A DNA stretch of 64,000 bases from Candidatus Adlerbacteria bacterium (GCA_903884345.1 CAISEE010000046.1:3830-67829), one strand, 5' to 3'. Positions 29,294-61,108 are shown, counted from the first letter of the stretch. Numbers and translations are program-made. Notes: generated from the sequence alone by a model not told the origin.

Positions 29294-29365
29294 GGGCGCA
29301 TAGCTCAGCGGTAGAGCAGCCGTCTTATACACGGCCGGTCGTAGGTTCGATCCCTACTGCGCCCA
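29294..29365 (+). tRNA. tRNA with anticodon UAU (predicted tRNA-Ile decoding AUA)
   Basis: Acceptor GGGCGCA/TGCGCCC; D-arm GCTC-AGCGGTA-GAGC; anticodon stem GCCGT/ACGGC with loop CTTATAC; T-arm GTAGG-TTCGATC-CCTAC. Confidence 0.75.
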
Positions 29366-29445
29366 CAAAGATTGCATGCCGCCGACGAATGCGGTATGGT
29401 CAGCCACAGAATAGTCTCCTCAACACACAGAATGGAAAGTTCCCG

Positions 29446-33399: not shown

Positions 33400-33780
33400 G
33401 GGGATGCCAGGCATAGACAATGGGACAGTTCGTCGGATGCGCGAAGTAGAAGACCAGATCTTCTTAAAAAGCTGGAAAACCTACCTGCAGCCAAAACTGC
33501 ATCGCCGTATTTCGCGGCGAACGACTTCCAGTTCGCGCTCGCGCGAGCCTAACGTCGCACTCTCTCCTTCTCGCCTGAGGCTGGAGACCGGGTGTTATAT
33601 ATCAGGACTATAGTCGCGAATCGTCCGCCTTGCGACGCGACCGAACATTAGAGGCTGCAATCGACGCTAGTTTCGTTCGCTTCATATAGCGTCGGTTAAA
33701 GAAACAAAAAAGCGCGACTACACTCCGTAGAAGCTCCGATAGCTCCCCGTTGCACGCGGGTTCAACTCCCGCCATCTCCA
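33400..33780 (+). ncRNA. ssrA: tmRNA (ssrA)
   Basis: 3' end ACGCGGGTTCAACTCCCGCCATCTCCA nearly identical to E. coli tmRNA 3' end. 5' GGGGATG pairs with CATCTCC including a G3:U pair. Internal tag-like frame GCG AAC GAC TTC CAG TTC GCG CTC GCG CGA GCC TAA (ANDFQFALARA*); adjacent to smpB. Confidence 0.8.
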
Positions 33781-33929
33781 CTCGACTCGCCTGCCTTTAT
33801 GGCAGACTCGCTCGTGGCAAGCCACCGATTCGGAATAGCCGACTTGGTGGCTTTTCACGTTGGCGAATCGAGTGTCCCGAGCGAAGTCGAGGGACTTGAT
33901 TTGAATACTAGGCGCGCGAAAATAGAGAC

Positions 33930-42934: not shown

Positions 42935-42956
42935 CTTGCGGAGGTCAGTCCTCCGT
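42935..42956 (+). repeat. Repeated terminator-hairpin motif (copy 1)
   Basis: ttgcggaggtcagtcctccg is identical over 20 nt to 59495..59514; the stem GCGGAGG/CCTCCGC follows the mntH stop. Confidence 0.7.
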
Positions 42957-49665: not shown

Positions 49666-50265
49666 ATGAAACTCCACACCATCACCATCTCGGGCATCCC
49701 GGGGAGCGGCAAATCATCGACCGCAGACACCGTTGCGATGCGCCTGGGCTACTCACGATTCTCCTCGGGCGACTTTATGCGCAAGCTCGCGCAAAGCCGC
49801 GGCGTCTCGGTCGACGGGCTGCGTGCCTTGGCCGAACAAGACCACACCATCGATCAACAGATCGACACCGAGGTGCAGCGCGTGGGCCTCAGCGGCAACA
49901 TCGTCATCGACTCGCGCCTGGGCTACCACTTCCTCCCCGACAGCTTCAAAGTATTTCTGTCGCTTGACCCGGAGACCTCGGCACAGCGCGCGGTCGAGCA
50001 TCTCGTGCAAGTCGGCGCACCGGCAGACGACGGCCAACTCCTGCGCGACACGCTCCAAAAAATCACCGACCGCATCGCGAGCGAAAAACAGCGCCACCTC
50101 GCAACCTACGGCGTCGACTTCACCAACGCCGCCAACTACGACCTCATCGTCGACACCAACGCCCATTCGCTCGACGAGACCGTCGAGATGATTTTGGCCG
50201 CCTACAACGTCTGGAGCAACGAGAGACAGCAGCCTCCTACGCCAACCGGTACCCCTCTCGCGTAA
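49666..50265 (+). CDS. cmk: Cytidylate kinase (short/archaeal-type Cmk family)
   Basis: ITISGIPGSGKSSTA P-loop; (d)CMP kinase-like layout. Its 3' end overlaps gmk convergently by 29 nt. Confidence 0.75.
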   Translation: MKLHTITISGIPGSGKSSTADTVAMRLGYSRFSSGDFMRKLAQSRGVSVDGLRALAEQDHTIDQQIDTEVQRVGLSGNIVIDSRLGYHFLPDSFKVFLSLDPETSAQRAVEHLVQVGAPADDGQLLRDTLQKITDRIASEKQRHLATYGVDFTNAANYDLIVDTNAHSLDETVEMILAAYNVWSNERQQPPTPTGTPLA

Positions 50266-50833
50266 GGATCGCAACCACGTTTGCGACCGCCGCCGCCAAT
50301 TGCTGGTCGGCGTTAATAACCGTGAAGTCACACAGGGGGCGGTCTTCGGCGACCTCTTTGAGTGCGTTTTGTTGGCGCTGTGCCAACTCCTCGTCGCTCA
50401 TCTCGGGGTTGCGGGTGCGCAGGCGCGCGAGCAACTCGGTCATATCGCCCGGCATGATGAAAATCGCGGTCGCGCCGTAGTGTTTTTTGTAAAACGAAAT
50501 GCCGACGCCGTCGGTATTGGCCAACACGACGAAGCCTGCATCGAGTTTACTCTGCAGGTCGGGCGCGTACGTGCCGTAGTAGACGTCACGATTTTCTATA
50601 TGAGTCACTTCAAGCATCTCCCCCGCCGTCTGCTTGGCGAGAAAATCTTCTTTGCTGAAGAAGTAGTAGTCGACGCCGTAGGTCTCGCCGGGTCGGGGCG
50701 CACGCGTCGTGGCCGTCACCAGGCGGCGCACACGGTCTGGAAACTGCGCGAGGATGGCGTTGGTGATGGCGCTCTCACCGCTCCCACTGGGACCCGAGAT
50801 GACGGCAACCTGCTTTATGCTGCCGTCCCCCAT
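50237..50833 (-). CDS. gmk: Guanylate kinase
   Basis: AVISGPSGSGESAI P-loop, GMP-binding YGVDYYF, ATRAPRPGE. Confidence 0.85.
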   Translation of the reverse strand: MGDGSIKQVAVISGPSGSGESAITNAILAQFPDRVRRLVTATTRAPRPGETYGVDYYFFSKEDFLAKQTAGEMLEVTHIENRDVYYGTYAPDLQSKLDAGFVVLANTDGVGISFYKKHYGATAIFIMPGDMTELLARLRTRNPEMSDEELAQRQQNALKEVAEDRPLCDFTVINADQQLAAAVANVVAILTREGYRLA

Positions 50834-52113: not shown

Positions 52114-52557
52114 TTACTCGGCAATCGAACCGCCCGCCTTCTCGATCTTCTCTTTAGCCGAGCCTGAAACGACGCAGCCGGCGATGATGAACTTCTTGGT
52201 GACCTCACCGTTGCCGAGAATCTTCACGGCCGGAGTGATGGTCTTGCGTGCGCGAACGAGGCCGCGCTCGACCAAGACTGCCGGCGAGATGGTCTCCCCC
52301 GCCTTGAAGGCGACCTCAAGCGAGCTCACATTCACGACCGCAGGCTTCTCCTGGATGCTGTAGAGGCCCTGGATGCCGCGTCCGCGCATCTTCGGAAGTT
52401 TCTTGAGCTTCTCGCGGACGTCTGGGCGAATCGAGTGACCGGCGCGCGCCTTCTGACCCTTGGTACCACGACCCGAGGTCTTGCCGCGAATACCGCCACG
52501 ACCGACGCGCTTGGCCGATTTCGTTGCTGTCTTTGGTTTGAGTTCGTGGAGTTGCAT
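52114..52557 (-). CDS. rplO: 50S ribosomal protein L15
   Basis: MQLHELKPKTATKSAKRVGRGGIRGKTSGRGTKGQKAR. Confidence 0.9.
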   Translation of the reverse strand: MQLHELKPKTATKSAKRVGRGGIRGKTSGRGTKGQKARAGHSIRPDVREKLKKLPKMRGRGIQGLYSIQEKPAVVNVSSLEVAFKAGETISPAVLVERGLVRARKTITPAVKILGNGEVTKKFIIAGCVVSGSAKEKIEKAGGSIAE

Positions 52558-52562
52558 AAAAG

Positions 52563-53174
52563 TTAGGCTTTGAGCTGCTTAAGCGCTTCGATTGCGGCGC
52601 GCGCGTTGTTAAGACCGTTCTTGCTGCCCGAGTGGATCTTGGCCACCACATTGGTGACGCCACCCAATTCGAGGACCGGGCGAACCGACGAGCCGGCGAC
52701 GAGACCGCGGCCGCGAGCCGGCATGAGCGAGACGCGTGCGGCGCAGTACTTGGCGTCGACCTCGTGTGCGATCGAGGTGTCTTTGGTGAGGTTGATGGTG
52801 ATCATGTGCTTCTTGGCATCGCGGACCGCCTTGTCGATTGCAAGCGTCGTGTCCCCTGCTTTGCCGAGACCCACACCGACTTTGCCCTTCTTGTTGCCGA
52901 TGATGATTGCAACCGAGAATGAGAAGCGGCGACCGCCGGCGACCACACGCGCCACGCGGCGGATGTTGATCATCTTTTGGTCAAACTCGCTTTTCGCGCG
53001 CGGAGGGCGCGGACCGCGATTGCCGCCAGGGCCACCTGGGCGACCGCCGGGGCGACCAGCACCGCCGCGAGCACCGCGTCCGCGCGGCGAAAACGCCGGC
53101 TTTGCCGAAGGAGCAGCGGCAGTGGTTGCCTCTGGTGCCTGTCCTGCGGTGATGTTGTTTTCGATGTCAGCCAT
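52563..53174 (-). CDS. rpsE: 30S ribosomal protein S5 (with Arg/Gly/Pro-rich N-terminal extension)
   Basis: MINIRRVARVVAGGRRFSFSVAIIIGNKKGKVGVGLGKA core; ~60-aa RG-rich extension. Confidence 0.9.
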   Translation of the reverse strand: MADIENNITAGQAPEATTAAAPSAKPAFSPRGRGARGGAGRPGGRPGGPGGNRGPRPPRAKSEFDQKMINIRRVARVVAGGRRFSFSVAIIIGNKKGKVGVGLGKAGDTTLAIDKAVRDAKKHMITINLTKDTSIAHEVDAKYCAARVSLMPARGRGLVAGSSVRPVLELGGVTNVVAKIHSGSKNGLNNARAAIEALKQLKA

Positions 53175-54086: not shown

Positions 54087-54476
54087 TTACCAAATTTCGA
54101 ACAGAGTCTCGCCGCCGACGCGCTGCTCGCGAGCTTCTTTACCAGTAAGGATGCCTGCCGGGGTCGAGAGGAGCAGAAGGCCGTGACCACGCTTGACCGG
54201 CTGGATGTCGCGCACACCGGCGTAGAGGCGGCGTGAGGGCTTCGAGAGGCGCTTGACGCCCGAGATGACCGGCTTGCCGTCTTTGTAGGCAAGAGCGACG
54301 ATAAGCGAGGCGCCGGCCTTGGACTTCTTGTCGATCGAGGCGACATAGCCCTCGCGGACCAAGACCTCGGCGATGGCACGCTTCATCTGCGAGTACGGCA
54401 AGGTCAAAGTCTCCTTACCAGCGTTGCTGGCGTTCTTGAGACGAATAATGAAATCTGCTGTTGGGTCGGTTACCAT
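54087..54476 (-). CDS. rpsH: 30S ribosomal protein S8
   Basis: [45 protein letters not shown]. Confidence 0.9.
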
Positions 54477-54655
54477 GATGATTTTCGGATGCCCGGAATA
54501 AGACCTTCGTTAGCGGCTTCGCGGAAGCAGGTGCGGCACATACCGAAGTCGCGCATAAACGAGCGAGCGCGGCCGCAGCGGAAACAGCGGTTAACCGCGC
54601 GCGAAGAGAACTTCGGCGTCTTATTCGATCTTGCTACTGTAGATTTTTTTGCCAT
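54470..54655 (-). CDS. rpsZ: 30S ribosomal protein S14 type Z (zinc-binding)
   Basis: 61 aa; [23 protein letters not shown] (C4 zinc ribbon). Confidence 0.9.
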
Positions 54656-54690
54656 TTAGAAAAGAAAAGCCCGAAAAAAGGGCTTCGCAG
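54656..54690 (-). promoter_or_regulatory. Leader hairpin plus U-tract directly abutting rpsZ AUG (terminator-like attenuator/operator)
   Basis: On the minus strand: GAAGCCC-ttttttc-GGGCTT-TTCTTTTCTAA-ATG; no SD sequence. Confidence 0.55.
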
Positions 54691-54719
54691 ATAGTACGCG
54701 AAAGCGGTTAGAAAGTCAA
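54691..54719 (-). promoter_or_regulatory. Near-consensus sigma-70 promoter for rpsZ-secY operon
   Basis: On the minus strand: TTGACT-17 nt-TACTAT, ~7 nt upstream of the hairpin leader. Confidence 0.55.
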
Positions 54720-54771
54720 CAAACTCGCCTGCGCTTCATATAGTTTCCATACCCTGCCCTGTGGAAACCCT

Positions 54772-55515
54772 ATGGTTGCGAGTGGTGGTACAATGGAAAT
54801 ATATATGATTGAAATAGACTCACTGCACAAACAGATTGACGGGCGAACCATCGTGTCCAACCTCTCACTTTCGATACAAAAGGGCTCTGTCTTCGGCTTT
54901 TTGGGCCCCAACGGAGCGGGCAAGACGACCACGATGAAGATTCTGGTGGGACTCAACCACCCCTCCTCGGGGCGGGTCACCATCGACGGGCACGCCCCGA
55001 GCGAGACCCTGACCCGCGAGAAACTGGGCTTTATGCCCGAGGCACCGTACTTCTACGAGCACCTCACGGGGTTGGAGTTCCTGCGCTTTTGCGGCGAGCT
55101 CTTTGCCCGGCCCCGCGGCGAGGCCGCCTACGAGGCACTGCTGCGCAAAGTCGGCATCTTCGAGGCCAAAGACCAGCGCATCACCACCTACTCCAAGGGC
55201 ATGAAGCAGCGCCTGGGGTTTGCGCAGGCCCTGGTGAATGACCCCGAGTACGTCTTCCTCGACGAGCCCTTGGATGGCCTTGACCCCATCGGCCGCCGGG
55301 CGCTTAAATCGATGATCCGGGAACTCAAGCACGACGGGCGCACGGTCTTCTTTAACTCTCACATCCTCTTTGACACCGAGGAGCTGTGCGACGAGATCGG
55401 CATCCTCAACCGCGGCTCCCTCCTGTTTGCCGGCCCTTTGGGCGAGTTTACCCGCGGCCTGTCGCTGGAAGAGCAGTTCGTCGCCACTATTGAGCAACTC
55501 GAAGTAACTGCATGA
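54772..55515 (+). CDS. ABC transporter ATP-binding protein
   Basis: Walker A GPNGAGKTTT, Q-loop, signature-like YSKGMKQRL, Walker B VFLDEPLDGLD. Alternative start at 54793. Confidence 0.85.
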   Translation: MVASGGTMEIYMIEIDSLHKQIDGRTIVSNLSLSIQKGSVFGFLGPNGAGKTTTMKILVGLNHPSSGRVTIDGHAPSETLTREKLGFMPEAPYFYEHLTGLEFLRFCGELFARPRGEAAYEALLRKVGIFEAKDQRITTYSKGMKQRLGFAQALVNDPEYVFLDEPLDGLDPIGRRALKSMIRELKHDGRTVFFNSHILFDTEELCDEIGILNRGSLLFAGPLGEFTRGLSLEEQFVATIEQLEVTA

Positions 55516-56288
55516 AACACTCATTTATCCGCGACACCCTGGTCGTCGCCAAAAATACGTTCAAAGAAAGCGTGCGCGACAAGGTCTTTTACGCCCTCTT
55601 CGCCTTCGCCTTCATCACCATCACCTTTACCCTCTTCTTGGGTTCGATTTCGCTGAGCGAAGACGTCCACGTGATTCGAAGCCTCGGGATGGCCGGCATC
55701 TACCTCTTTAGCATCCTCATCACGGTCTTTTTGGGCACCGCGCTCATGTACAAAGAGATCGAGCGCCGCACGCTCTACTTCATCCTCTCAAAACCAGTCA
55801 CCCACGCGCAGGTCGTGGTCGGCAAGTTCCTCGGGCTCTTTGCGAGTGTCGCACTCTCGACCCTGGGTATGACGGCAGTCTACCTCGCGACCGTGCTCTA
55901 CGCGGGCGGCGGGTTTGATCGATTGGCACTTCTGGCCGTCTTCTTCGAGATTCTCGAGCTCGGCCTCCTCATCGCGCTCTCAATCTTCTTCTCGACCTTC
56001 GCCAAGCCCCTTGCGGGCGCGGTCTACGCCATCCTCGTCATCTACATCGGCCACTCGCTGGGGATGCTCGCTGCGGTCTCCGAAAAGAGCGGCGTTCTCG
56101 CGCACCGCTTCATCCAAGTGCTCTACTACCTTTTGCCCAACCTCGAGAAATTTAACATACGCGATTTGGTCCTCTACAACCAGGCACCCTCGCTCTCTGC
56201 CACCCTGGCGGTCGTCCTCTACGCCGCGGTCTACGCGACGATACTCCTGTGCGGCGGGACACTACTTCTTAAGCGACGCGAATTTTAG
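55512..56288 (+). CDS. ABC-2 family transporter permease
   Basis: 258 aa, six TM helices; overlaps the ATPase stop (ATGA). Confidence 0.75.
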   Translation: MKHSFIRDTLVVAKNTFKESVRDKVFYALFAFAFITITFTLFLGSISLSEDVHVIRSLGMAGIYLFSILITVFLGTALMYKEIERRTLYFILSKPVTHAQVVVGKFLGLFASVALSTLGMTAVYLATVLYAGGGFDRLALLAVFFEILELGLLIALSIFFSTFAKPLAGAVYAILVIYIGHSLGMLAAVSEKSGVLAHRFIQVLYYLLPNLEKFNIRDLVLYNQAPSLSATLAVVLYAAVYATILLCGGTLLLKRREF

Positions 56289-56290
56289 CC

Positions 56291-57121
56291 ATGCCCGAGG
56301 TCGTACGACATAGCAGTACTGCGCGCTGGGCACTCGCGCTGACCCTCCTCATCGCGCTCGTGGGAAGCCAGGTTTTCTTTGACCGCAACGCGCCCCAGGG
56401 CCACGACATTCCACTGAGCACCCTCTCGCCCGACGTCGTGCGCGCCGCAGACCTTGGCCTGCACGGGGCGGCGGCATCTCTGCTGTGGCTTCGTGTCGTG
56501 CAAAACGTCGGTATGTACGTCCTGCAGTCGCCCAAGACCATGTCGAGCGACATGCAGGCGGTCGTCGAGCTGGATCCCAAGTTTAGCTACCCCTACAGCT
56601 TCGCCGTGCTCATGATCCCCGGCATCGATCGCTCGCAGACGCCCCAAGCACTGGCAATCGGCGAGCGCGGCATGGCCGAGAACCTCGGCGACTGGCGCAT
56701 CCCCTACTACCTGGGCTTTACCTACCACTTCGTGCTGCACGACCCCAAAAACGCCCTCGTGTATATGACACAGACGGCGCACACGCCGGGCGTCCCCGAG
56801 GGCATCAAGGTCTCGGCACTCAACTATGGCTCACAGACGAAGGTCGAGGAACAGACGCGCGAGATCTGGACCGCGATTCGCGACAATGCCACCGACGACG
56901 TCACCCGCCAGCAGGCGCAAGATAACCTCGACCACCTCGCCATCATCGACGGCCTAAAAGCCGCGGTGGCAGCCTACAAGGCTCGATACGGCACCTTCCC
57001 CACCCGCCTCGACGCACTCGTCACCTCGGGGATCATCCCGGCGATTCCGCAAGATCCGTTCGGCATCACGTTTGGTATACTGCACGACAACGGCGAGCTC
57101 ACGTTTTCACTCGGCAAATAA
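56291..57121 (+). CDS. Hypothetical membrane-anchored protein; C-terminus with pseudopilin-like YGxFPxxLxxLV...P(Q)DP(F/W)G motif
   Basis: N-terminal TM; C-terminal AAYKARYGTFPTRLDALVTSGIIPAIPQDPFG. Confidence 0.5.
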   Translation: MPEVVRHSSTARWALALTLLIALVGSQVFFDRNAPQGHDIPLSTLSPDVVRAADLGLHGAAASLLWLRVVQNVGMYVLQSPKTMSSDMQAVVELDPKFSYPYSFAVLMIPGIDRSQTPQALAIGERGMAENLGDWRIPYYLGFTYHFVLHDPKNALVYMTQTAHTPGVPEGIKVSALNYGSQTKVEEQTREIWTAIRDNATDDVTRQQAQDNLDHLAIIDGLKAAVAAYKARYGTFPTRLDALVTSGIIPAIPQDPFGITFGILHDNGELTFSLGK

Positions 57122-57130
57122 CATTCCTGC

Positions 57131-58621
57131 ATGCACCACCACGCCGACCTCTACGCGATTCTTCCCCTCTCGGCGCTCGCCCTTCTGACCACCCTCTCGG
57201 CGCTCTCCAACCCCTACAGCCGCATGAGTCGCGTGCGCAATCCGTTTGAGACCAAGCTTGCGCACGGCCGCATCACACTCACGAAACGGTTCGACCTGTC
57301 GGTGCGCCGATCGCTCTTTTGGCGTCTGTTCGCATACGGCAAATGCGGGTGGCACATCGTCTCGAACGTGCGCGCGGGCTCTCGCGCCAAAAGCAAAACC
57401 CGCGAGGGCATCATTCGCGACATCCACCGCGTGCGTTTCAATCCCAAGCGGCCGTACGTCATCTCGGGCGACCACTTCAACGTCTTCTACCCGCGCAACC
57501 TCGGCGTCTTTTACTACGCGATGATCGACCCGCGCACGGCACTGAGCCCCGCCGATTTCGAGCATCGCCAGCGCCTGTACCTGCAGTCGGCGGCCTACGC
57601 CATCGCCGCCTTCGCCGAACATGGCGATTGCACGACGACCATCGTCCCCGTGGGCGAGCGTGCCGTCTGCTGCATCAACTTCTACACCTACCCCTCCGAC
57701 GCCCTCTACGGCATCCTCTTTGCGCTTGCCGTCCTGCGCGACGATCGTGTCTTTTGCGAGCGATTCCCTTTCACCCCCGCTGCCGCCCCTGCGCCCGTGA
57801 CCAAAGATGCCGCCGAGGCGCTGCTTAGCGAGCGCCGCGCGACACTCGAACTGCTCCTGCAAAAGTACGTCGTACATGTTTATGATTTTGAAACCGGCCT
57901 CATTAAAACCAACGTGCGCATCTCGTCGGCCAAAGACATCACCATCCGCGAGGGTGCGTTTTATGACAACGTCATCGTATGGAAGACGCTGTCGCTGGCC
58001 GACGAACTTGGTCTCACTCGACCTGACATTAACCTGCCTCAGCTGAAGGCCCGCATTCTTACGGCCTTCTGGCGCGAGCAAGACGGCTTCTTTCTCGAGG
58101 ATCAATCGCGTGCCGCGGCGAGCGAGGGCTACTACTCGGCCGACTGGCTGACCGCTTTCTTCACCGGATTCCTCGATGCCAACGTCCCCGCCGAAGTAAC
58201 GTACCTGCGCCGCGCGGTCGGCTACACGATGCGACAAAACCTCGACCTCCCCTTCCCGCTGCGCTACCAGGGCGAGGATCGCGCGAGCCGACAGTACCCG
58301 CTCGTGCGCCTCGTCGTCCCCTCCTACGGCGGCACCAGCATCTGGAGCTTTTGGGGCGCCGAGTTCATCAAGCTTTTGGTCGTCCTCTACCGCCACACGG
58401 GAAACGAGACATACCTTGCGCGCGCCGGCCAGCACGTCGAAACGTATGAAAAGAATATGGAACAGTACCGCGGCTACCCCGAGGTCTACAACACCGACGG
58501 CGGCATGCTCAACACACCGCTCTACAAATCCGTCCGCCAAACCGGCTGGGTCGTCGGCTTCGAACAAGCCGCCGCGATGTACCGTGCGGCTACAGAAATC
58601 ACAGAAGCGGCAAAAAATTAA
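57131..58621 (+). CDS. Hypothetical 496-aa protein, Trp/Tyr/aromatic-rich, possibly glycoside-hydrolase-like (alpha/alpha barrel)
   Basis: Signal-like N-terminus; motifs GDHFNVFYPRNLGVFYY, GGTSIWSFWGAEFIKLLVVLYRHTGNETYL, GYPEVYNTDGGML. Family assignment uncertain. Confidence 0.5.
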   Translation: MHHHADLYAILPLSALALLTTLSALSNPYSRMSRVRNPFETKLAHGRITLTKRFDLSVRRSLFWRLFAYGKCGWHIVSNVRAGSRAKSKTREGIIRDIHRVRFNPKRPYVISGDHFNVFYPRNLGVFYYAMIDPRTALSPADFEHRQRLYLQSAAYAIAAFAEHGDCTTTIVPVGERAVCCINFYTYPSDALYGILFALAVLRDDRVFCERFPFTPAAAPAPVTKDAAEALLSERRATLELLLQKYVVHVYDFETGLIKTNVRISSAKDITIREGAFYDNVIVWKTLSLADELGLTRPDINLPQLKARILTAFWREQDGFFLEDQSRAAASEGYYSADWLTAFFTGFLDANVPAEVTYLRRAVGYTMRQNLDLPFPLRYQGEDRASRQYPLVRLVVPSYGGTSIWSFWGAEFIKLLVVLYRHTGNETYLARAGQHVETYEKNMEQYRGYPEVYNTDGGMLNTPLYKSVRQTGWVVGFEQAAAMYRAATEITEAAKN

Positions 58622-58709
58622 CGCTTCATCTTTTCATGTACAAGCACCTCCTGGTTGAGTAAAATGATGCGCAGACGGACTGCGATACCACAACAAACAA
58701 AGGGAAGGA

Positions 58710-59102
58710 TTGCATTGCATGGTCGAGGCGTCACTCATCGCACAGACGTTTTGCACGAACCTCACGTTCTTAGCTGCGCTTATCGAGGCCTTTCACGACT
58801 ATAACGAAAAAGTACCCAACGGAGGCGAAATTTCCAGCACGACATTGACGCTGTACGAGGAGTCGGCCGATACCGAATACCAGATTCGCATTGACTTGAG
58901 TCCGCACCTCAGCCGGGACGGACCCGATCGACTCCTCGACGCCCACGGGCTTACCTTGCGCGAGGATGTGCAACACGTTCTCACTGCGCTCCTCACCCAT
59001 CATCGTGGGCACAAGGATTCACCGAGCATCTTAGTTCTCATCATACTTCTGTCATCAAACGCCGGTCACGGCACCGCGTCTGCTACGATTCCCATCCGCT
59101 AA
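58710..59102 (+). CDS. Hypothetical protein
   Basis: 130-aa ORF; lower-GC region; no motif. Confidence 0.4.
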   Translation: MHCMVEASLIAQTFCTNLTFLAALIEAFHDYNEKVPNGGEISSTTLTLYEESADTEYQIRIDLSPHLSRDGPDRLLDAHGLTLREDVQHVLTALLTHHRGHKDSPSILVLIILLSSNAGHGTASATIPIR

Positions 59103-59172
59103 GTACCAACGATACACGGCCTCACTCGCAAGAGCGGGGCCGTAACTAGTTCGCCCAACGAGCGTTGTATAT

Positions 59173-59489
59173 GTGTATATGACCAAACACCCCATCCTAA
59201 ACGCATTGCTGGCGGCCTTGTATATCGGCCTCATCGCGTCGTTAATGTTCTTCGGGCAGCGATACGTTGACCCGGTCGATAACGTGCTCATGCCGATGAC
59301 CATGCTGTCCTTGTTGACACTCTCGGTCGCGTTTATGGCCTGCGCTTTTTCCTCCAGCCCGTACTCCTGTATTTGGACGGACACAAGGTCGCGGCCGTCA
59401 AACTGATCCTGCACACCATCGCCGCCTTCGCGATCATCACAGCGCTCTTTCTCGCCGCCCTCTTCATCTCGCCGCTACTCTACAAATAA
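59173..59489 (+). pseudogene. Small membrane protein, frameshifted in a T5 run
   Basis: Frame 1 ...LSVAFMACAF then -1 frame FLQPVLLYLDGHKVAAVKLILHTIAAFAIITALFLAALFISPLLYK*. Frames join if T5 at 59346..59350 were T6. Confidence 0.6.
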
Positions 59490-59494
59490 AGAGT

Positions 59495-59517
59495 TTGCGG
59501 AGGTCAGTCCTCCGCAA
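59495..59517 (+). repeat. Repeated terminator-hairpin motif (copy 2)
   Basis: TTGCGGAGG-tcagt-CCTCCGCAA followed by ATTTGTTT; 20-nt identity with 42935..42954. Confidence 0.7.
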
Positions 59518-59584
59518 ATTTGTTTGACAAGACCATGCGTTTAGGTACTATGCAAAATAGCTAAACTAGTTCATGGAGAACGTA

Positions 59585-60031
59585 ATGCTTACGCGACGGC
59601 AGGTATTCATAGGTGCTACTGCTGCTGCAGCAATGGCTCCTGTATTGGCTAACATGATGCTCGATACCAGCGCCGCTTCGGAGCGCGATGCTGCTCTGCG
59701 GTTGATCGCGGCACGGGTGAAGACAGCGCTCAGCACCCCCGTTTCGACGAACGCAACGCCGGACTTCGTACGGATGTGGGAGCAACTCACCGCCGAATGG
59801 AGAACCGCACCAGACCTTGTAGCGATGGTGGAACAGAAGACAAACAGGATTTTCGCCAACGGCTACTCGATCTTGGTGTACGCGCACTTCGGCAGCCTGC
59901 CCTCGCAAGGGATGGTAAGGGATTACTTCTCCGACTACGCTCTCGACCACTTCCCGTTCCACTACCATGAATTACGCGAGCCGGAGATGCTTGCGGCATT
60001 CACAGCGCTTGTGCCCCAACACCTGCGCTGA
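59585..60031 (+). CDS. Hypothetical secreted protein with twin-arginine (Tat) signal peptide
   Basis: MLTRRQVFIGATAAAAMAPVLA (S/T-R-R-x-F-L/I-G plus h-region plus AxA); GGAGAA SD. Confidence 0.6.
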   Translation: MLTRRQVFIGATAAAAMAPVLANMMLDTSAASERDAALRLIAARVKTALSTPVSTNATPDFVRMWEQLTAEWRTAPDLVAMVEQKTNRIFANGYSILVYAHFGSLPSQGMVRDYFSDYALDHFPFHYHELREPEMLAAFTALVPQHLR

Positions 60032-60107
60032 CACCCTTTTGTCTCATTTTGGGAGAGCCGCTTAGTAGCAAACGCGAACAGCGGCTCTTTACTTCTATGA
60101 CCCACCG

Positions 60108-60127
60108 TCTACGGAGGACTGTCCTCC
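60108..60127 (+). repeat. Repeated hairpin motif (copy 3, near-inverted variant)
   Basis: ACGGAGG-actgt-CCTCCGT followed by AAATTTTGATTTT. Confidence 0.5.
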
Positions 60128-60181
60128 GTAAATTTTGATTTTCCCCATCTGGGAAATAGAAACTGTGATAAACTTTGCAGC

Positions 60182-60481
60182 ATGAAGACACCACTATACT
60201 TGCACGCACTAGCTGTGTTTTGTTTGTATGTTATTTGGCATTTTACTATCGGATTGCAATACGGTCTCATGTACTCGTCGTTGCTCGTCGATATCGTCGC
60301 CTTCGCTTTGTATGTAATTTTATTTGCAGCAGGACTCGCGGTTGTGGGATCGATTTGGTTACCGACAAAATTTCGGTTTATCAACAGCCGTAGACGAGCG
60401 TACCTAGCTATAATCGTTGCGGCTTACTTCTTTTTGTCCATCGTTGGATTTATATGGGCGGTTGCAGCAGGAGGCATGTAG
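60182..60481 (+). CDS. Small integral membrane protein (99 aa)
   Basis: Three TM helices; AT-rich codon usage relative to surroundings. Confidence 0.5.
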   Translation: MKTPLYLHALAVFCLYVIWHFTIGLQYGLMYSSLLVDIVAFALYVILFAAGLAVVGSIWLPTKFRFINSRRRAYLAIIVAAYFFLSIVGFIWAVAAGGM

Positions 60482-60519
60482 GCTTGCCCTCGAAGACGCG
60501 TTCTCTGCAGTACCAAACT

Positions 60520-60558
60520 GAAAACCCGCCGCATCGTTTCGAATGCGGCGGGTTTTTC
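60520..60558. terminator. Bidirectional rho-independent terminator (end of rplE operon segment and of inserted cassette)
   Basis: aaaa-CCCGCCGCA-tcgtttcgaa-TGCGGCGGG-tttttcgg. Confidence 0.8.
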
Positions 60559-60568
60559 GGTAAAAAAA

Positions 60569-61108
60569 TTATTTCTTGAACGGGAGACCGAGGTGTTCGA
60601 GGTAGGCCAGGGCAGACTCGCGGGTGGTGGCGGTGGTGACGATGGTGATCGCCATACCGAAAACGTCCTTGAGCTCCTCGTCGGCGGTTTCAGGGAAGAC
60701 CGAGTGCTCTTTGATGCCGAGGGTGTAGTTGCCCATCTCGTCGACGGCGGTCTTGGAGATACCCTTGAAGTCTTTAGTACGCGGGAGGGCGACGTGGATC
60801 AGGCGGTTGAGGAAGTCCTCTTTGCGCTTGCCGCGCAGCGTCACCTGGTAGCCAATGACGTCGCCGATACGGGTCTTGAAGGTCGCGACGGCCTTCTTGG
60901 CGCCGCGGGAAATCGGCTTCTGGCCGGTGATCTTGGCGAGGCGGTCGATGACGAGGGCAATCTTTGCCTTGTCTTTGGTCATTTTGCCCACACCAACCGA
61001 CACGACAACCTTCTCGATCTTCGGGGTCTGCATGACGTTCGTCCACGCAAAGTCACCTTTGAGGGTCGAGTACGCGGTCTTCTGCTGTTCGTGTATAAGT
61101 TGGGTCAT
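60569..61108 (-). CDS. rplE: 50S ribosomal protein L5
   Basis: 179 aa; KIEKVVVSVGVGKMTKDKAKIALVIDRLAKITGQKP. Confidence 0.9.
   Translation of the reverse strand: MTQLIHEQQKTAYSTLKGDFAWTNVMQTPKIEKVVVSVGVGKMTKDKAKIALVIDRLAKITGQKPISRGAKKAVATFKTRIGDVIGYQVTLRGKRKEDFLNRLIHVALPRTKDFKGISKTAVDEMGNYTLGIKEHSVFPETADEELKDVFGMAITIVTTATTRESALAYLEHLGLPFKK

Follow-up and report, generated by a model that had tools for sequence, protein, structure and literature searches.

In the 64,000-nucleotide stretch of Candidatus Adlerbacteria DNA analysed here (the window; coordinates are counted from its first letter), the row of ribosomal-protein genes is split between rplE and rpsZ, and the 5913 bp separating the two hold genes that lie on the plus strand, opposite to the ribosomal-protein genes. 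This arrangement had been claimed from the sequence alone and is borne out by the ORF and Pfam results. The features of the locus are as follows.

54470-54655, minus strand: rpsZ, zinc-type S14 (PF00253; 61 aa, four Cys), which opens the downstream unit
54656-54771, no single strand: divergent promoter region with the predicted rpsZ promoter (minus) and a promoter-like site of the cassette (plus)
54666-54686, minus strand: hairpin and U-run of the rpsZ leader, beginning 4 nt past the -10 hexamer and stopping 10 nt short of the ATG
54772-55515, plus strand: ABC transporter ATPase of the DrrA/ABC-2 exporter type (PF00005, 5e-29, above cut-off)
55512-56288, plus strand: ABC-2 family permease (PF12679, 8.7e-14; 51.9 bits, cut-off 27.2)
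56291-57121, plus strand: accessory protein (276 aa) of the ABC module, with a signal-anchor helix, helical TPR-like repeats and, at its C-terminus, a short pseudopilin-like motif
57131-58621, plus strand: 496-aa protein with an N-terminal hydrophobic helix and an (alpha/alpha)6-barrel, glycoside-hydrolase-like domain
58719-59102, plus strand: 127-aa ORF, lineage-specific, with a gene call in public assemblies
59179-59406, plus strand: small ORF called within the gap
59179-59490, plus strand: gene, now frameshifted, of a small membrane protein with three helices (103 aa if repaired), an old resident of the gap
59494-59518, no single strand: bidirectional terminator-like palindrome 3' of the frameshifted gene (inverted repeat I6, pairing with 60112-60132)
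59573-60031, plus strand: 152-aa ORF with a twin-arginine-like N-terminus (TRRQVFIG), a near-orphan
60110-60130, plus strand: terminator-like palindrome 3' of the 152-aa ORF, a copy of a repeated hairpin
60182-60481, plus strand: 99-aa hydrophobic ORF from the ORF list, of uncertain coding status
60521-60556, no single strand: bidirectional hairpin resembling an intrinsic terminator, located between the 99-aa ORF and rplE
60569-61108, minus strand: rplE, L5 (PF00281 and PF00673), which ends the upstream ribosomal-protein transcription unit

The spc gene order (rplN-rplX-rplE-rpsN-rpsH-rplF-rplR-rpsE-(rpmD)-rplO-secY) is otherwise retained in the window, with L30 absent and S5 and L15 spaced by 5 bp. 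The genes of the downstream unit, rpsZ-rpsH-rplF-rplR-rpsE-rplO-secY, are tightly spaced, and the remaining junctions from S19 to SecY measure -7 to 33 bp. The L5 protein is 79% identical to an Adlerbacteria L5. The row shares its gene order with the E. coli spc operon except for L30, and the genes 3' of S14 are identical in kind. In E. coli, however, only 14 bp separate rplE from rpsN and the two are co-transcribed, whereas in the window a predicted terminator, 5.9 kb of DNA and a predicted promoter stand in between. A classical contiguous spc operon, with rplE directly before rpsN/rpsZ on one transcript, is therefore not what we find, since the gap holds a terminator-like hairpin and a promoter. 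The boundary known from E. coli, rpsQ|rplN, is closed in Paceibacteria: no operon start was found in the S17|L14 spacer, which measures 1 bp in the window and does not exceed 106 bp in 78 relatives. In the E. coli spc operon (rplN...rpmJ), S8 feedback acts at the start of rplE; with the window's arrangement, an S8 operator at rplE would be unable to govern the rpsZ-rpsH block.

Such a split could also arise if the two halves of the ribosomal cluster had been wrongly joined through unrelated DNA during assembly, and two public assemblies do break within the ABC ATPase gene, near 55.27-55.29 kb. Three other assemblies that are 100% identical to the window at the protein level argue against this. 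L086 (ENA ERZ27229609), which differs in sample and assembler, runs from S8/S14 through the ABC genes to the 99-aa ORF; L081 (Logan ERR4195021) runs from the permease to rplE, rplX and rplN; and L082 crosses the interior of the cassette, reading through the break point as L086 does. Together these independent assemblies span both junctions, and relatives with the same architecture exist. We therefore regard the junctions as real and a chimera as extremely unlikely.

The first three plus-strand genes resemble a compact exporter module. The permease gene overlaps the ATPase gene by 4 nt and is separated from the gene of the 276-aa protein by 2 nt. Among NCBIfam subfamilies, the ATPase scores best with drrA, lantibiotic-protection ABC and GldA but reaches none of their cut-offs, and as the NCBIfam matches all fall short, no substrate class or equivalog was assigned to the exporter. 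With its overlapping ATPase and PF12679 permease genes and, 3' of these, a gene for a membrane-anchored third protein, the module recalls the DrrAB, NosFY and GldAFG types of ABC-2 exporter; the 276-aa protein, however, has no Pfam or NCBIfam match and no sequence-level relation to NosD, NosL or GldG. The AlphaFold2 model of this protein has a pLDDT of 91.1, with weak matches to TPR folds (E 0.02-0.1) and weak GspG/EpsG profile matches (E about 0.6). Its 36 homologs always lie 3' of an ABC ATPase and an ABC-2 permease. The complete module occupies the same site in two relatives (L001 and the ERZ1426519 contig, in which the 276-aa homolog stops 53 nt from rplE), and in two other genomes it is flanked by the malic-enzyme and maf genes.

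Homologs of the 496-aa protein number more than 240 and are spread over the candidate phyla radiation; they form a family for which Pfam has no model, and those found in other places stand alone. The protein has no sequence match in Pfam, NCBIfam or the PDB and falls outside the described GH families, while its fold qualifies as an (alpha/alpha)6 barrel. Identity to its structural neighbours, GH100 invertase, GH15 glucoamylase, GH133/GDE, GH63 and GH116, is 9-15%, and the N-terminal hydrophobic helix sets it apart from them. Among 40 homologs, D114, D133, D190, D269, D279, D324 and E451 are invariant and may include catalytic acid/base residues of the barrel centre. Both this protein and the 276-aa protein had been taken for orphans, a status that the 36-member family of the one and the numerous homologs and GH-like fold of the other refute. 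The four tightly packed genes are expected to be co-transcribed and probably serve a role at the cell envelope, in glycoconjugate export or remodelling.

The remaining genes of the gap are small. The 127-aa ORF has no Pfam or NCBIfam family match and no homolog in the related loci. In the small membrane-protein gene, two reading frames join near a T5 run at about 59340; intact homologs of 101-111 aa share 66-76% identity with it, and two of them (P0157 and P0163) occupy the same gap beside rplE in two relatives (L089 and L090). The same frameshift is present in the independent assemblies L081 and L086, and with the intact homologs this confirms that the frameshift reported earlier is real. The Tat-like signal claimed for the 152-aa ORF is likewise present: its N-terminus, MLTRRQVFIGATAAAAMAPVLA, reads as a twin-arginine motif followed by a hydrophobic stretch, making the product a candidate for Tat targeting as judged from its sequence. 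An exhaustive HMMER search returned a single real homolog of this ORF (41% identity, 140 aa). In the window, the ORF also has a promoter-like site of its own (TTGACA-16-TACTAT, 59524-59551). Three copies of the hairpin sequence CGGAGGWCWGWCCTCCG are present in the window (42939, 59498 and 60112), against 0.09 expected. The 99-aa ORF has no Pfam or NCBIfam match and no homolog in 80 species-level related loci, and it is not called in public assemblies. Only the 127-, 152- and 99-aa ORFs are thus left as near-orphans.

A terminator on one side of the cassette and a promoter with a leader on the other had been proposed, and both are present in the sequence. We predict these signals, and with them the operon limits and the transcription start and stop sites, from consensus matches and conservation. 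The putative rpsZ promoter is sigma70-like, with TTGACT at 54719-54714 and TACTAT at 54696-54691 on the minus strand and a 17-nt spacer; the promoter-like site facing the cassette has its -35 element at 54716-54721 and its -10 element at 54739-54744. At the orthologous position upstream of rpsZ, promoters with at least 9 of 12 consensus matches were found in 43 of 61 loci and with at least 10 of 12 in 23 of 61, compared with a background in random DNA of 11% and 2.4%, respectively, and of 4-25% ahead of other ribosomal-protein genes. Gaps as short as 71-92 bp still contain the promoter. The leader in the window forms a 7-bp hairpin with a U-run, and among the nine strong promoter-like sites of the 64 kb, the rpsZ promoter is the sole one accompanied by such a hairpin. 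The same arrangement recurs 5' of rpsZ in many related loci, with varied stem sequences, and also 5' of rpsS; an Rfam search of the rpsZ leader matched no family. Placed right behind the promoter, a U-run hairpin could terminate transcription by itself. On the other side, the hairpin following rplE is a perfect 14-nt inverted repeat (60521-60534/60543-60556) with an 8-nt loop, flanked by an A-run 5' and a T-run 3'. A comparable hairpin with a T-run lies 3' of rplE in 37 of 68 related loci, as against 23 of 355 control windows (6.5%).

The comparison set comprised 80 Paceibacteria genomes, of the species closest by the window's L5, and is not a balanced sample. In these relatives, the L5-S14 spacer ranges from 26 to 9435 bp (median 889-894 bp); it exceeds 300 bp in 48 of 60 loci and 1 kb in 28, and is 300 bp or shorter in 12. 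In at least nine more genomes, S14 is absent from the 7.7-10 kb covered. None of the other 12-14 junctions between S19 and SecY is longer than 300 bp, except L16-L29, once; a further open junction is rplB|rpsS. The locus had been described as the most architecturally unusual of the window, but its split is not out of the ordinary for this organism: an open junction is the rule among relatives. What fills it differs from genome to genome. Of 310 ORFs in the relatives' gaps, 248 are singletons, a count inflated by spurious ORFs because the longest-ORF rule used to call them is crude; 150 gap ORFs match 119 different Pfam families. Given the conserved rpsZ promoter and post-rplE hairpin, these comparisons indicate that rplE|rpsZ in Paceibacteria is a lineage-wide operon boundary whose contents vary by genome. 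The possibility that the arrangement is an ancient lineage trait holds for the boundary and not for the contents.

The variety of the contents also bears on whether the gap genes act with the ribosome or need co-regulation with it, for instance through a ribosome-associated ABC ATPase. The ATPase has a generic match to the RbbA model (148 bits against a cut-off of 1050), three genomes carry the ABC module at this site, and the module has a divergent promoter region in common with rpsZ. Yet the gap contents over the 80 genomes, which include pilus genes, two-component systems, helicases, LexA and homing endonucleases, are functionally unrelated, in other genomes the same ABC module operates from a site outside the ribosomal row, and the cassette genes lie on the strand opposite to the ribosomal-protein genes. 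We consider such coupling very unlikely.

The sequence-only reading saw instead a single, recent horizontal acquisition, in which one foreign 5.9-kb cassette entered an otherwise intact spc operon. Sliding GC and tetranucleotide analysis upheld its observation that the distal part is AT-rich: among the 2-kb windows of the 64 kb, 58501-60500 has the lowest GC (0.526, mean 0.582) and the most deviant tetranucleotide profile (z +2.85). The ORFs of this part are near-orphans, and the contents of the gap are unlike those of most relatives. The acquisition-like composition is, however, confined to 58.5-60.5 kb, and the other two thirds of the cassette, at 54.5-58.5 kb, are native-like (z -1.1 to +0.3). 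The parts of the cassette also differ in their histories and in the sets of relatives that share them, the ABC module being shared at the site and the frameshifted gene being an old resident, while the junction itself is open in most relatives, with promoter and terminator conserved. Signs of mobility were absent as well: no cassette ORF matches an integrase, transposase or recombinase in Pfam or NCBIfam, no direct or inverted repeats flank the cassette, and no tRNA attachment site lies at it, the tRNAs of the window being found only at 13.4 and 29.3 kb. We thus disfavour a single acquisition as improbable.

We consider it likely that the otherwise universal S10-spc row is, in Paceibacteria, cut into separately promoted blocks instead of forming one or two long operons, that the rplE|rpsZ spacer is a permissive landing site, and that the 5.9 kb in the window was built stepwise. 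According to this model, rplE would close one block with an intrinsic terminator, and rpsZ would open the following one from a strong promoter of the sigma70 type, with a short hairpin/U-run leader. Because the downstream block would have its own promoter, DNA placed between terminator and promoter would leave ribosomal-protein expression undisturbed, and the spacer could therefore act as a permissive site that gains and loses unrelated genes. In the window, an ABC-2 exporter operon (ATPase, permease and membrane-anchored TPR-like partner) would have entered the gap in an ancestor common to at least two relatives; the GH-like membrane-anchored protein and several small genes would later have been set between this operon and rplE; and the older resident gene for a small membrane protein would have decayed by frameshift. 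It is genome comparison that shows the boundary, the conservation of that boundary and this mosaic history.

A related process has been described in Gammaproteobacteria and Bacilli, where genes that invade the regions between operons break up the ribosomal clusters (PMC8046335). In both cases, small sets of unrelated genes enter transcription-unit boundaries of the ribosomal supercluster, and the two sides may later separate fully; Paceibacteria display the same progression, from a spacer of 26 bp to more than 10 kb. The boundaries in the earlier case are classical ones (str|S10 and rpoBC|str), whereas those of Paceibacteria lie inside the S10 or spc operon of model bacteria (rplE|rpsZ and rplB|rpsS). 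The frequency is also far higher in Paceibacteria, where the majority of sampled species are affected.

The locus in the window is normal for its lineage and is hence of less interest as a single case. In it, two former orphans gain fold- or family-level assignments, and the frameshifted gene gains intact homologs. A wider reading, which we offer tentatively as quite possible though short of probable, is that Paceibacteria have re-cut the row into rpsJ | rplC-rplB | rpsS-rplE | rpsZ-secY, with the rpsS and rpsZ blocks starting alike (strong promoter, 5'-proximal GC hairpin, U-run, start codon), and that the open junctions are the main parking sites for accessory genes in these small genomes. 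In one subclade, a conserved structured RNA ahead of rpsZ may be a relocated feedback operator of the S8-containing block. The S10-spc row serves as a fixed syntenic marker in binning, phylogeny and operon prediction. As it is broken at two fixed places across a class of the candidate phyla radiation, rules from model bacteria, such as the operon limits and S8 feedback at rplE, would not transfer. The rplE|rpsZ and rplB|rpsS junctions would be predictable spots at which to look for lineage-specific accessory genes in very small genomes, and the shared promoter-hairpin leader, together with the rpsZ leader RNA, may provide an entry to the regulation of ribosomal proteins in organisms that do not grow in pure culture.

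The ORF listing and Pfam scans recovered both the split between rplE (L5) and rpsZ (zinc-type S14) and the set of plus-strand genes between them, which a sequence-only reading of this locus had described, and that observation is sound. In the ORF listing, rplE and rpsZ stand 5913 bp apart; elsewhere within the window, neighbouring genes of the S19-to-SecY row are separated by -7 to 33 bp.

Genes of the rplE–rpsZ interval in the window
54470-54655, minus strand, rpsZ, zinc-type S14 (ORF listing and Pfam scan)
54772-55515, plus strand, ABC ATPase (ORF listing and Pfam scan)
55512-56288, plus strand, ABC-2 permease, first 4 nt shared with the ATPase gene
56291-57121, plus strand, 276-aa ORF
57131-58621, plus strand, 496-aa ORF
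58719-59102, plus strand, smaller ORF
59179-59406, plus strand, smaller ORF
59573-60031, plus strand, smaller ORF
60182-60481, plus strand, smaller ORF
60569-61108, minus strand, rplE (ORF listing and Pfam scan)

The closest matches of L5 are from Candidatus Adlerbacteria, at 79% identity. The L30 gene is absent between S5 and L15, where a 5-bp gap is found (52557-52563), as expected for the candidate phyla radiation. Between secY and adk, a guanylate kinase gene (50237-50833, minus strand) and a cytidylate-kinase-like gene (49666-50265, plus strand) lie on opposite strands, and this stretch (49666-50833) is a further local deviation from the usual secY-adk-map order; adk and map, located just below 49666, are visible in the public contig only. 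The window also carries a tRNA-Ile (29294-29366) whose UAU anticodon is seldom seen in bacteria, and a tmRNA gene (33400-33783).

An assembly artefact was considered as the cause of the split. The cassette proteins were found in identical form on contigs assembled independently from other samples. The 17.9-kb contig L086 (ENA ERZ27229609) extends from L6, S8 and S14 across the ABC genes as far as the 99-aa ORF, L081 (Logan ERR4195021) reaches from the permease into rplE, rplX and rplN, and L082 covers the cassette interior. Together, these three contigs make an artefact very unlikely. In ERZ1426655 and ERZ27313173, contigs stop at almost identical positions within the ABC ATPase gene (about 55267-55286, or 55.27-55.29 kb), through which L086 and L082 continue, and these ends probably represent a branch of the assembly graph at a motif conserved among ABC genes.

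The same reading had regarded the split as unusual, which was not borne out by synteny. With L5 homologs as anchors, we took 80 species-level loci, which all come from metagenome genomes of the Parcubacteria/Paceibacteria type, and placed 16 cluster genes in them by tblastn. The L5-S14 spacer in these relatives has a median of ~890 bp with a range of 26-9435 bp, exceeding 300 bp in 48 of 60 loci and 1 kb in 28 of 60, and in at least nine additional loci S14 was not found within 7.7-10 kb of L5. Apart from a single L16-L29 case, no spacer among the 14 remaining junctions between S19 and SecY is longer than 300 bp. The rplE|rpsZ locus is thus ordinary for its lineage. In E. coli, by contrast, 14 bp separate rplE from rpsN, and it is rpsQ|rplN, with a 164-bp spacer, that forms the operon boundary, a junction which is closed in the Paceibacteria relatives. 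In an upstream survey with queries from locus L089, L2|S19 (rplB|rpsS) emerged as a second open junction (>300 bp in 36/47 loci, >1 kb in 23/47, maximum 6447 bp), S10|L3 was open in 15/35, and L3-L4, L4-L23, L23-L2, and S19-L22 were closed throughout. The source genome of the window is also split at rplB|rpsS, just past the window end (beyond 64000), and the genes in its gap there are one for a short-chain dehydrogenase and two ORFs of unknown identity.

Both ends of the cassette carry predicted transcription signals. Upstream of rpsZ on the minus strand, TTGACT-17-TACTAT is followed by a GC hairpin of 7 bp, its U-run and then the ATG. At the other end, the last ORF is separated from rplE by a perfect inverted repeat of 14 nt (60521-60556), with an A-run and a T-run at its sides; these features agree with the promoter/leader (54656-54719) and the terminator (60520-60558) that had been proposed from the sequence. 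On the plus strand, a promoter-like site, TCAACA-17-TATAGT, overlaps the rpsZ -35 region and is directed into the cassette. A sigma70-like promoter within 160 nt upstream of rpsZ, matching at least 9 of 12 positions, was found in 43 of 61 loci, and one matching at least 10 of 12 in 23 of 61; at these two thresholds, the corresponding controls gave 4-25% and 0-5% for 12 other ribosomal-protein genes and 11% and 2.4% for random DNA. The rpsZ promoter is kept even where the gap is 71-92 bp, and many copies have an extended -10 with TG immediately 5' of the -10 hexamer. In most loci, the leader has a short GC hairpin and U-run starting 4-9 nt past the -10 hexamer, with the ATG ~32-46 nt past that hexamer, and the stem sequences vary by locus. 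The same design (TTGACA, 16-17 nt, TAnTAT, GC hairpin, U-run, ATG) precedes rpsS in L005, L014, L034, L040-L079, and others, with a promoter of at least 9/12 matches in 52 of 65 loci. Of 68 loci whose gap is at least 150 bp, 37 have a terminator-like hairpin with a T-run in the 120 nt past the L5 stop, versus 23 of 355 control windows. On the strength of these promoter, leader, and terminator results, rplE|rpsZ, and also rplB|rpsS, appear to mark conserved operon boundaries. The leader hairpin may stabilise the 5' end, insulate against read-through, or work as an attenuator. That such a hairpin is a general feature of promoters was rejected, as among the nine strong promoter-like sites of the window that of rpsZ alone has a hairpin with a U-run. 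The lack of a Shine-Dalgarno sequence at rpsZ was likewise rejected as a special trait and is uninformative because no gene in the region carries one.

A conserved RNA motif was found exclusively upstream of rpsZ, at a distance of 10-109 nt, in 17 related loci (L018, L019, L022, L024, L026-L029, L032, L033, L037-L039, L044, L047, L048, and L052) and 41 metagenome contigs (L092, L102, and L126 are examples). It reads GAUUGG-A-AGC, a variable hairpin, and AGCU-AA-CCAAUC, that is, GAUUGGAAGC-variable hairpin-AGCUAACCAAUC, and shows covariation in the outer helix and the apical hairpin. The pattern used for the metagenome scan was loose, and 79 of 120 matches were chance occurrences in unrelated coding DNA, which served as the control: the apical insert folds at -7.0 kcal/mol versus -2.2 kcal/mol in these chance matches (p = 6e-13). 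The motif is not present in the window and is without an Rfam match. It is a candidate ribosomal-protein leader. Its A/A-U/G-C core is like that of the S8 site in 16S helix 21, but with different bulges, and no relation between the two is proposed. Five Adlerbacteria-like loci (L009, L010, L011, L012, and L016) have a different and longer rpsZ leader with ~70 extra nt, AGGU-hairpin-ACC..CAGAAUCAUA-hairpin, placed between the promoter-proximal hairpin and rpsZ. Rfam scans of the window and seven related loci returned no known leader or riboswitch. Neither an S14 leader nor any leader from these lineages is described in a published ribosomal-leader survey (PMC7247131).

The contents of the gaps appear to be mostly unrelated from genome to genome. 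All-against-all clustering left 248 of 310 crude gap ORFs as singletons, and 150 gap ORFs of at least 130 aa match 119 Pfam families, including type IV pilus genes, two-component systems, PIF1 helicases, LexA, LAGLIDADG endonucleases, and sigma factors. In some related genomes, the genes directly 3' of rplE are LAGLIDADG homing-endonuclease ORFs (two in all) or, in L040, L051, L054, L058, and L070, type IV pilus operons (PilM, PilB, PilC, PilO). Ribosomal clusters broken by genes invading inter-operon regions have been reported (PMC8046335). The present gaps resemble that pattern in being filled by invading genes at inter-operon regions but differ from it in that the Paceibacteria boundaries are operon-internal in model bacteria.

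We then asked how far the cassette itself is foreign, as had been suggested. Its composition is native-like over 54.5-58.5 kb, whereas no part of the window deviates more than 58.5-60.5 kb. Horizontal acquisition would apply at most to the last 2 kb. Pfam, tRNA, and repeat scans of the cassette found no mobility genes, tRNA, or boundary repeats. The ABC ATPase, permease, and 276-aa genes form a conserved module, found in the same gap in L001 (74/72/56% identity) and on a contig of ERZ1426519, in which 53 nt lie between the end of the 276-aa homolog and rplE; in two other genomes, the module lies between malic-enzyme and maf genes. The 3.4 kb at 57131-60568 would therefore be a later addition, inserted between the module and rplE. 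The small frameshifted ORF noted from the sequence is indeed one: the gene at 59179-59490 encodes 103 aa when repaired and has intact homologs, two of which adjoin rplE in the same gap (L089 and L090), and it appears to be a long-standing resident of the gap that is now decaying. The claim that the gap genes are orphans nearly held for three small ones, with no tblastn match of the small ORFs in the 80 related loci, from which homologs of the 127- and 99-aa ORFs are absent, and one real homolog of the near-orphan 152-aa ORF among 1.8 billion representatives; it failed for the frameshifted gene with its intact homologs, for the 276-aa protein, part of the conserved module, and for the 496-aa protein, a member of a large family. 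A palindrome, CGGAGGWCWGWCCTCCG, occurs three times in the window (42939-42955, 59498-59514, and 60112-60128; 0.09 expected), and two copies in opposite orientation bracket a promoter and the 152-aa ORF.

Close spacing of the four larger genes suggests a single operon. The ATPase is DrrA/ABC-2-exporter-like, without an equivalog-level assignment. The model of the 276-aa protein (pLDDT 91) shows a signal-anchor helix, TPR-like repeats, and a short alpha-beta-beta C-terminal motif with a weak likeness to pseudopilins. The 496-aa protein (57131-58621; homologs P0002-P0120) belongs to a well-conserved family across the radiation with a glycoside-hydrolase-like (alpha/alpha)6 fold and without a Pfam model, a candidate new GH-like family. 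Profile searches with both of these large proteins against PDB sequences gave nothing significant. A defence system was rejected, as PADLOC yielded generic ATPase matches only. In locus L085, the ABC module stands with an ECF sigma factor, a YkuD/PBP-type protein, and VanW, a context that suggests a cell-envelope role for the module.

In the searchable literature, we found no account of the rplE|rpsZ split in the radiation and none of internal breaks at fixed sites that share a promoter-leader design. It is this lineage-level pattern of fixed internal breaks and a shared promoter-leader, rather than the cassette itself, that is the interesting part.
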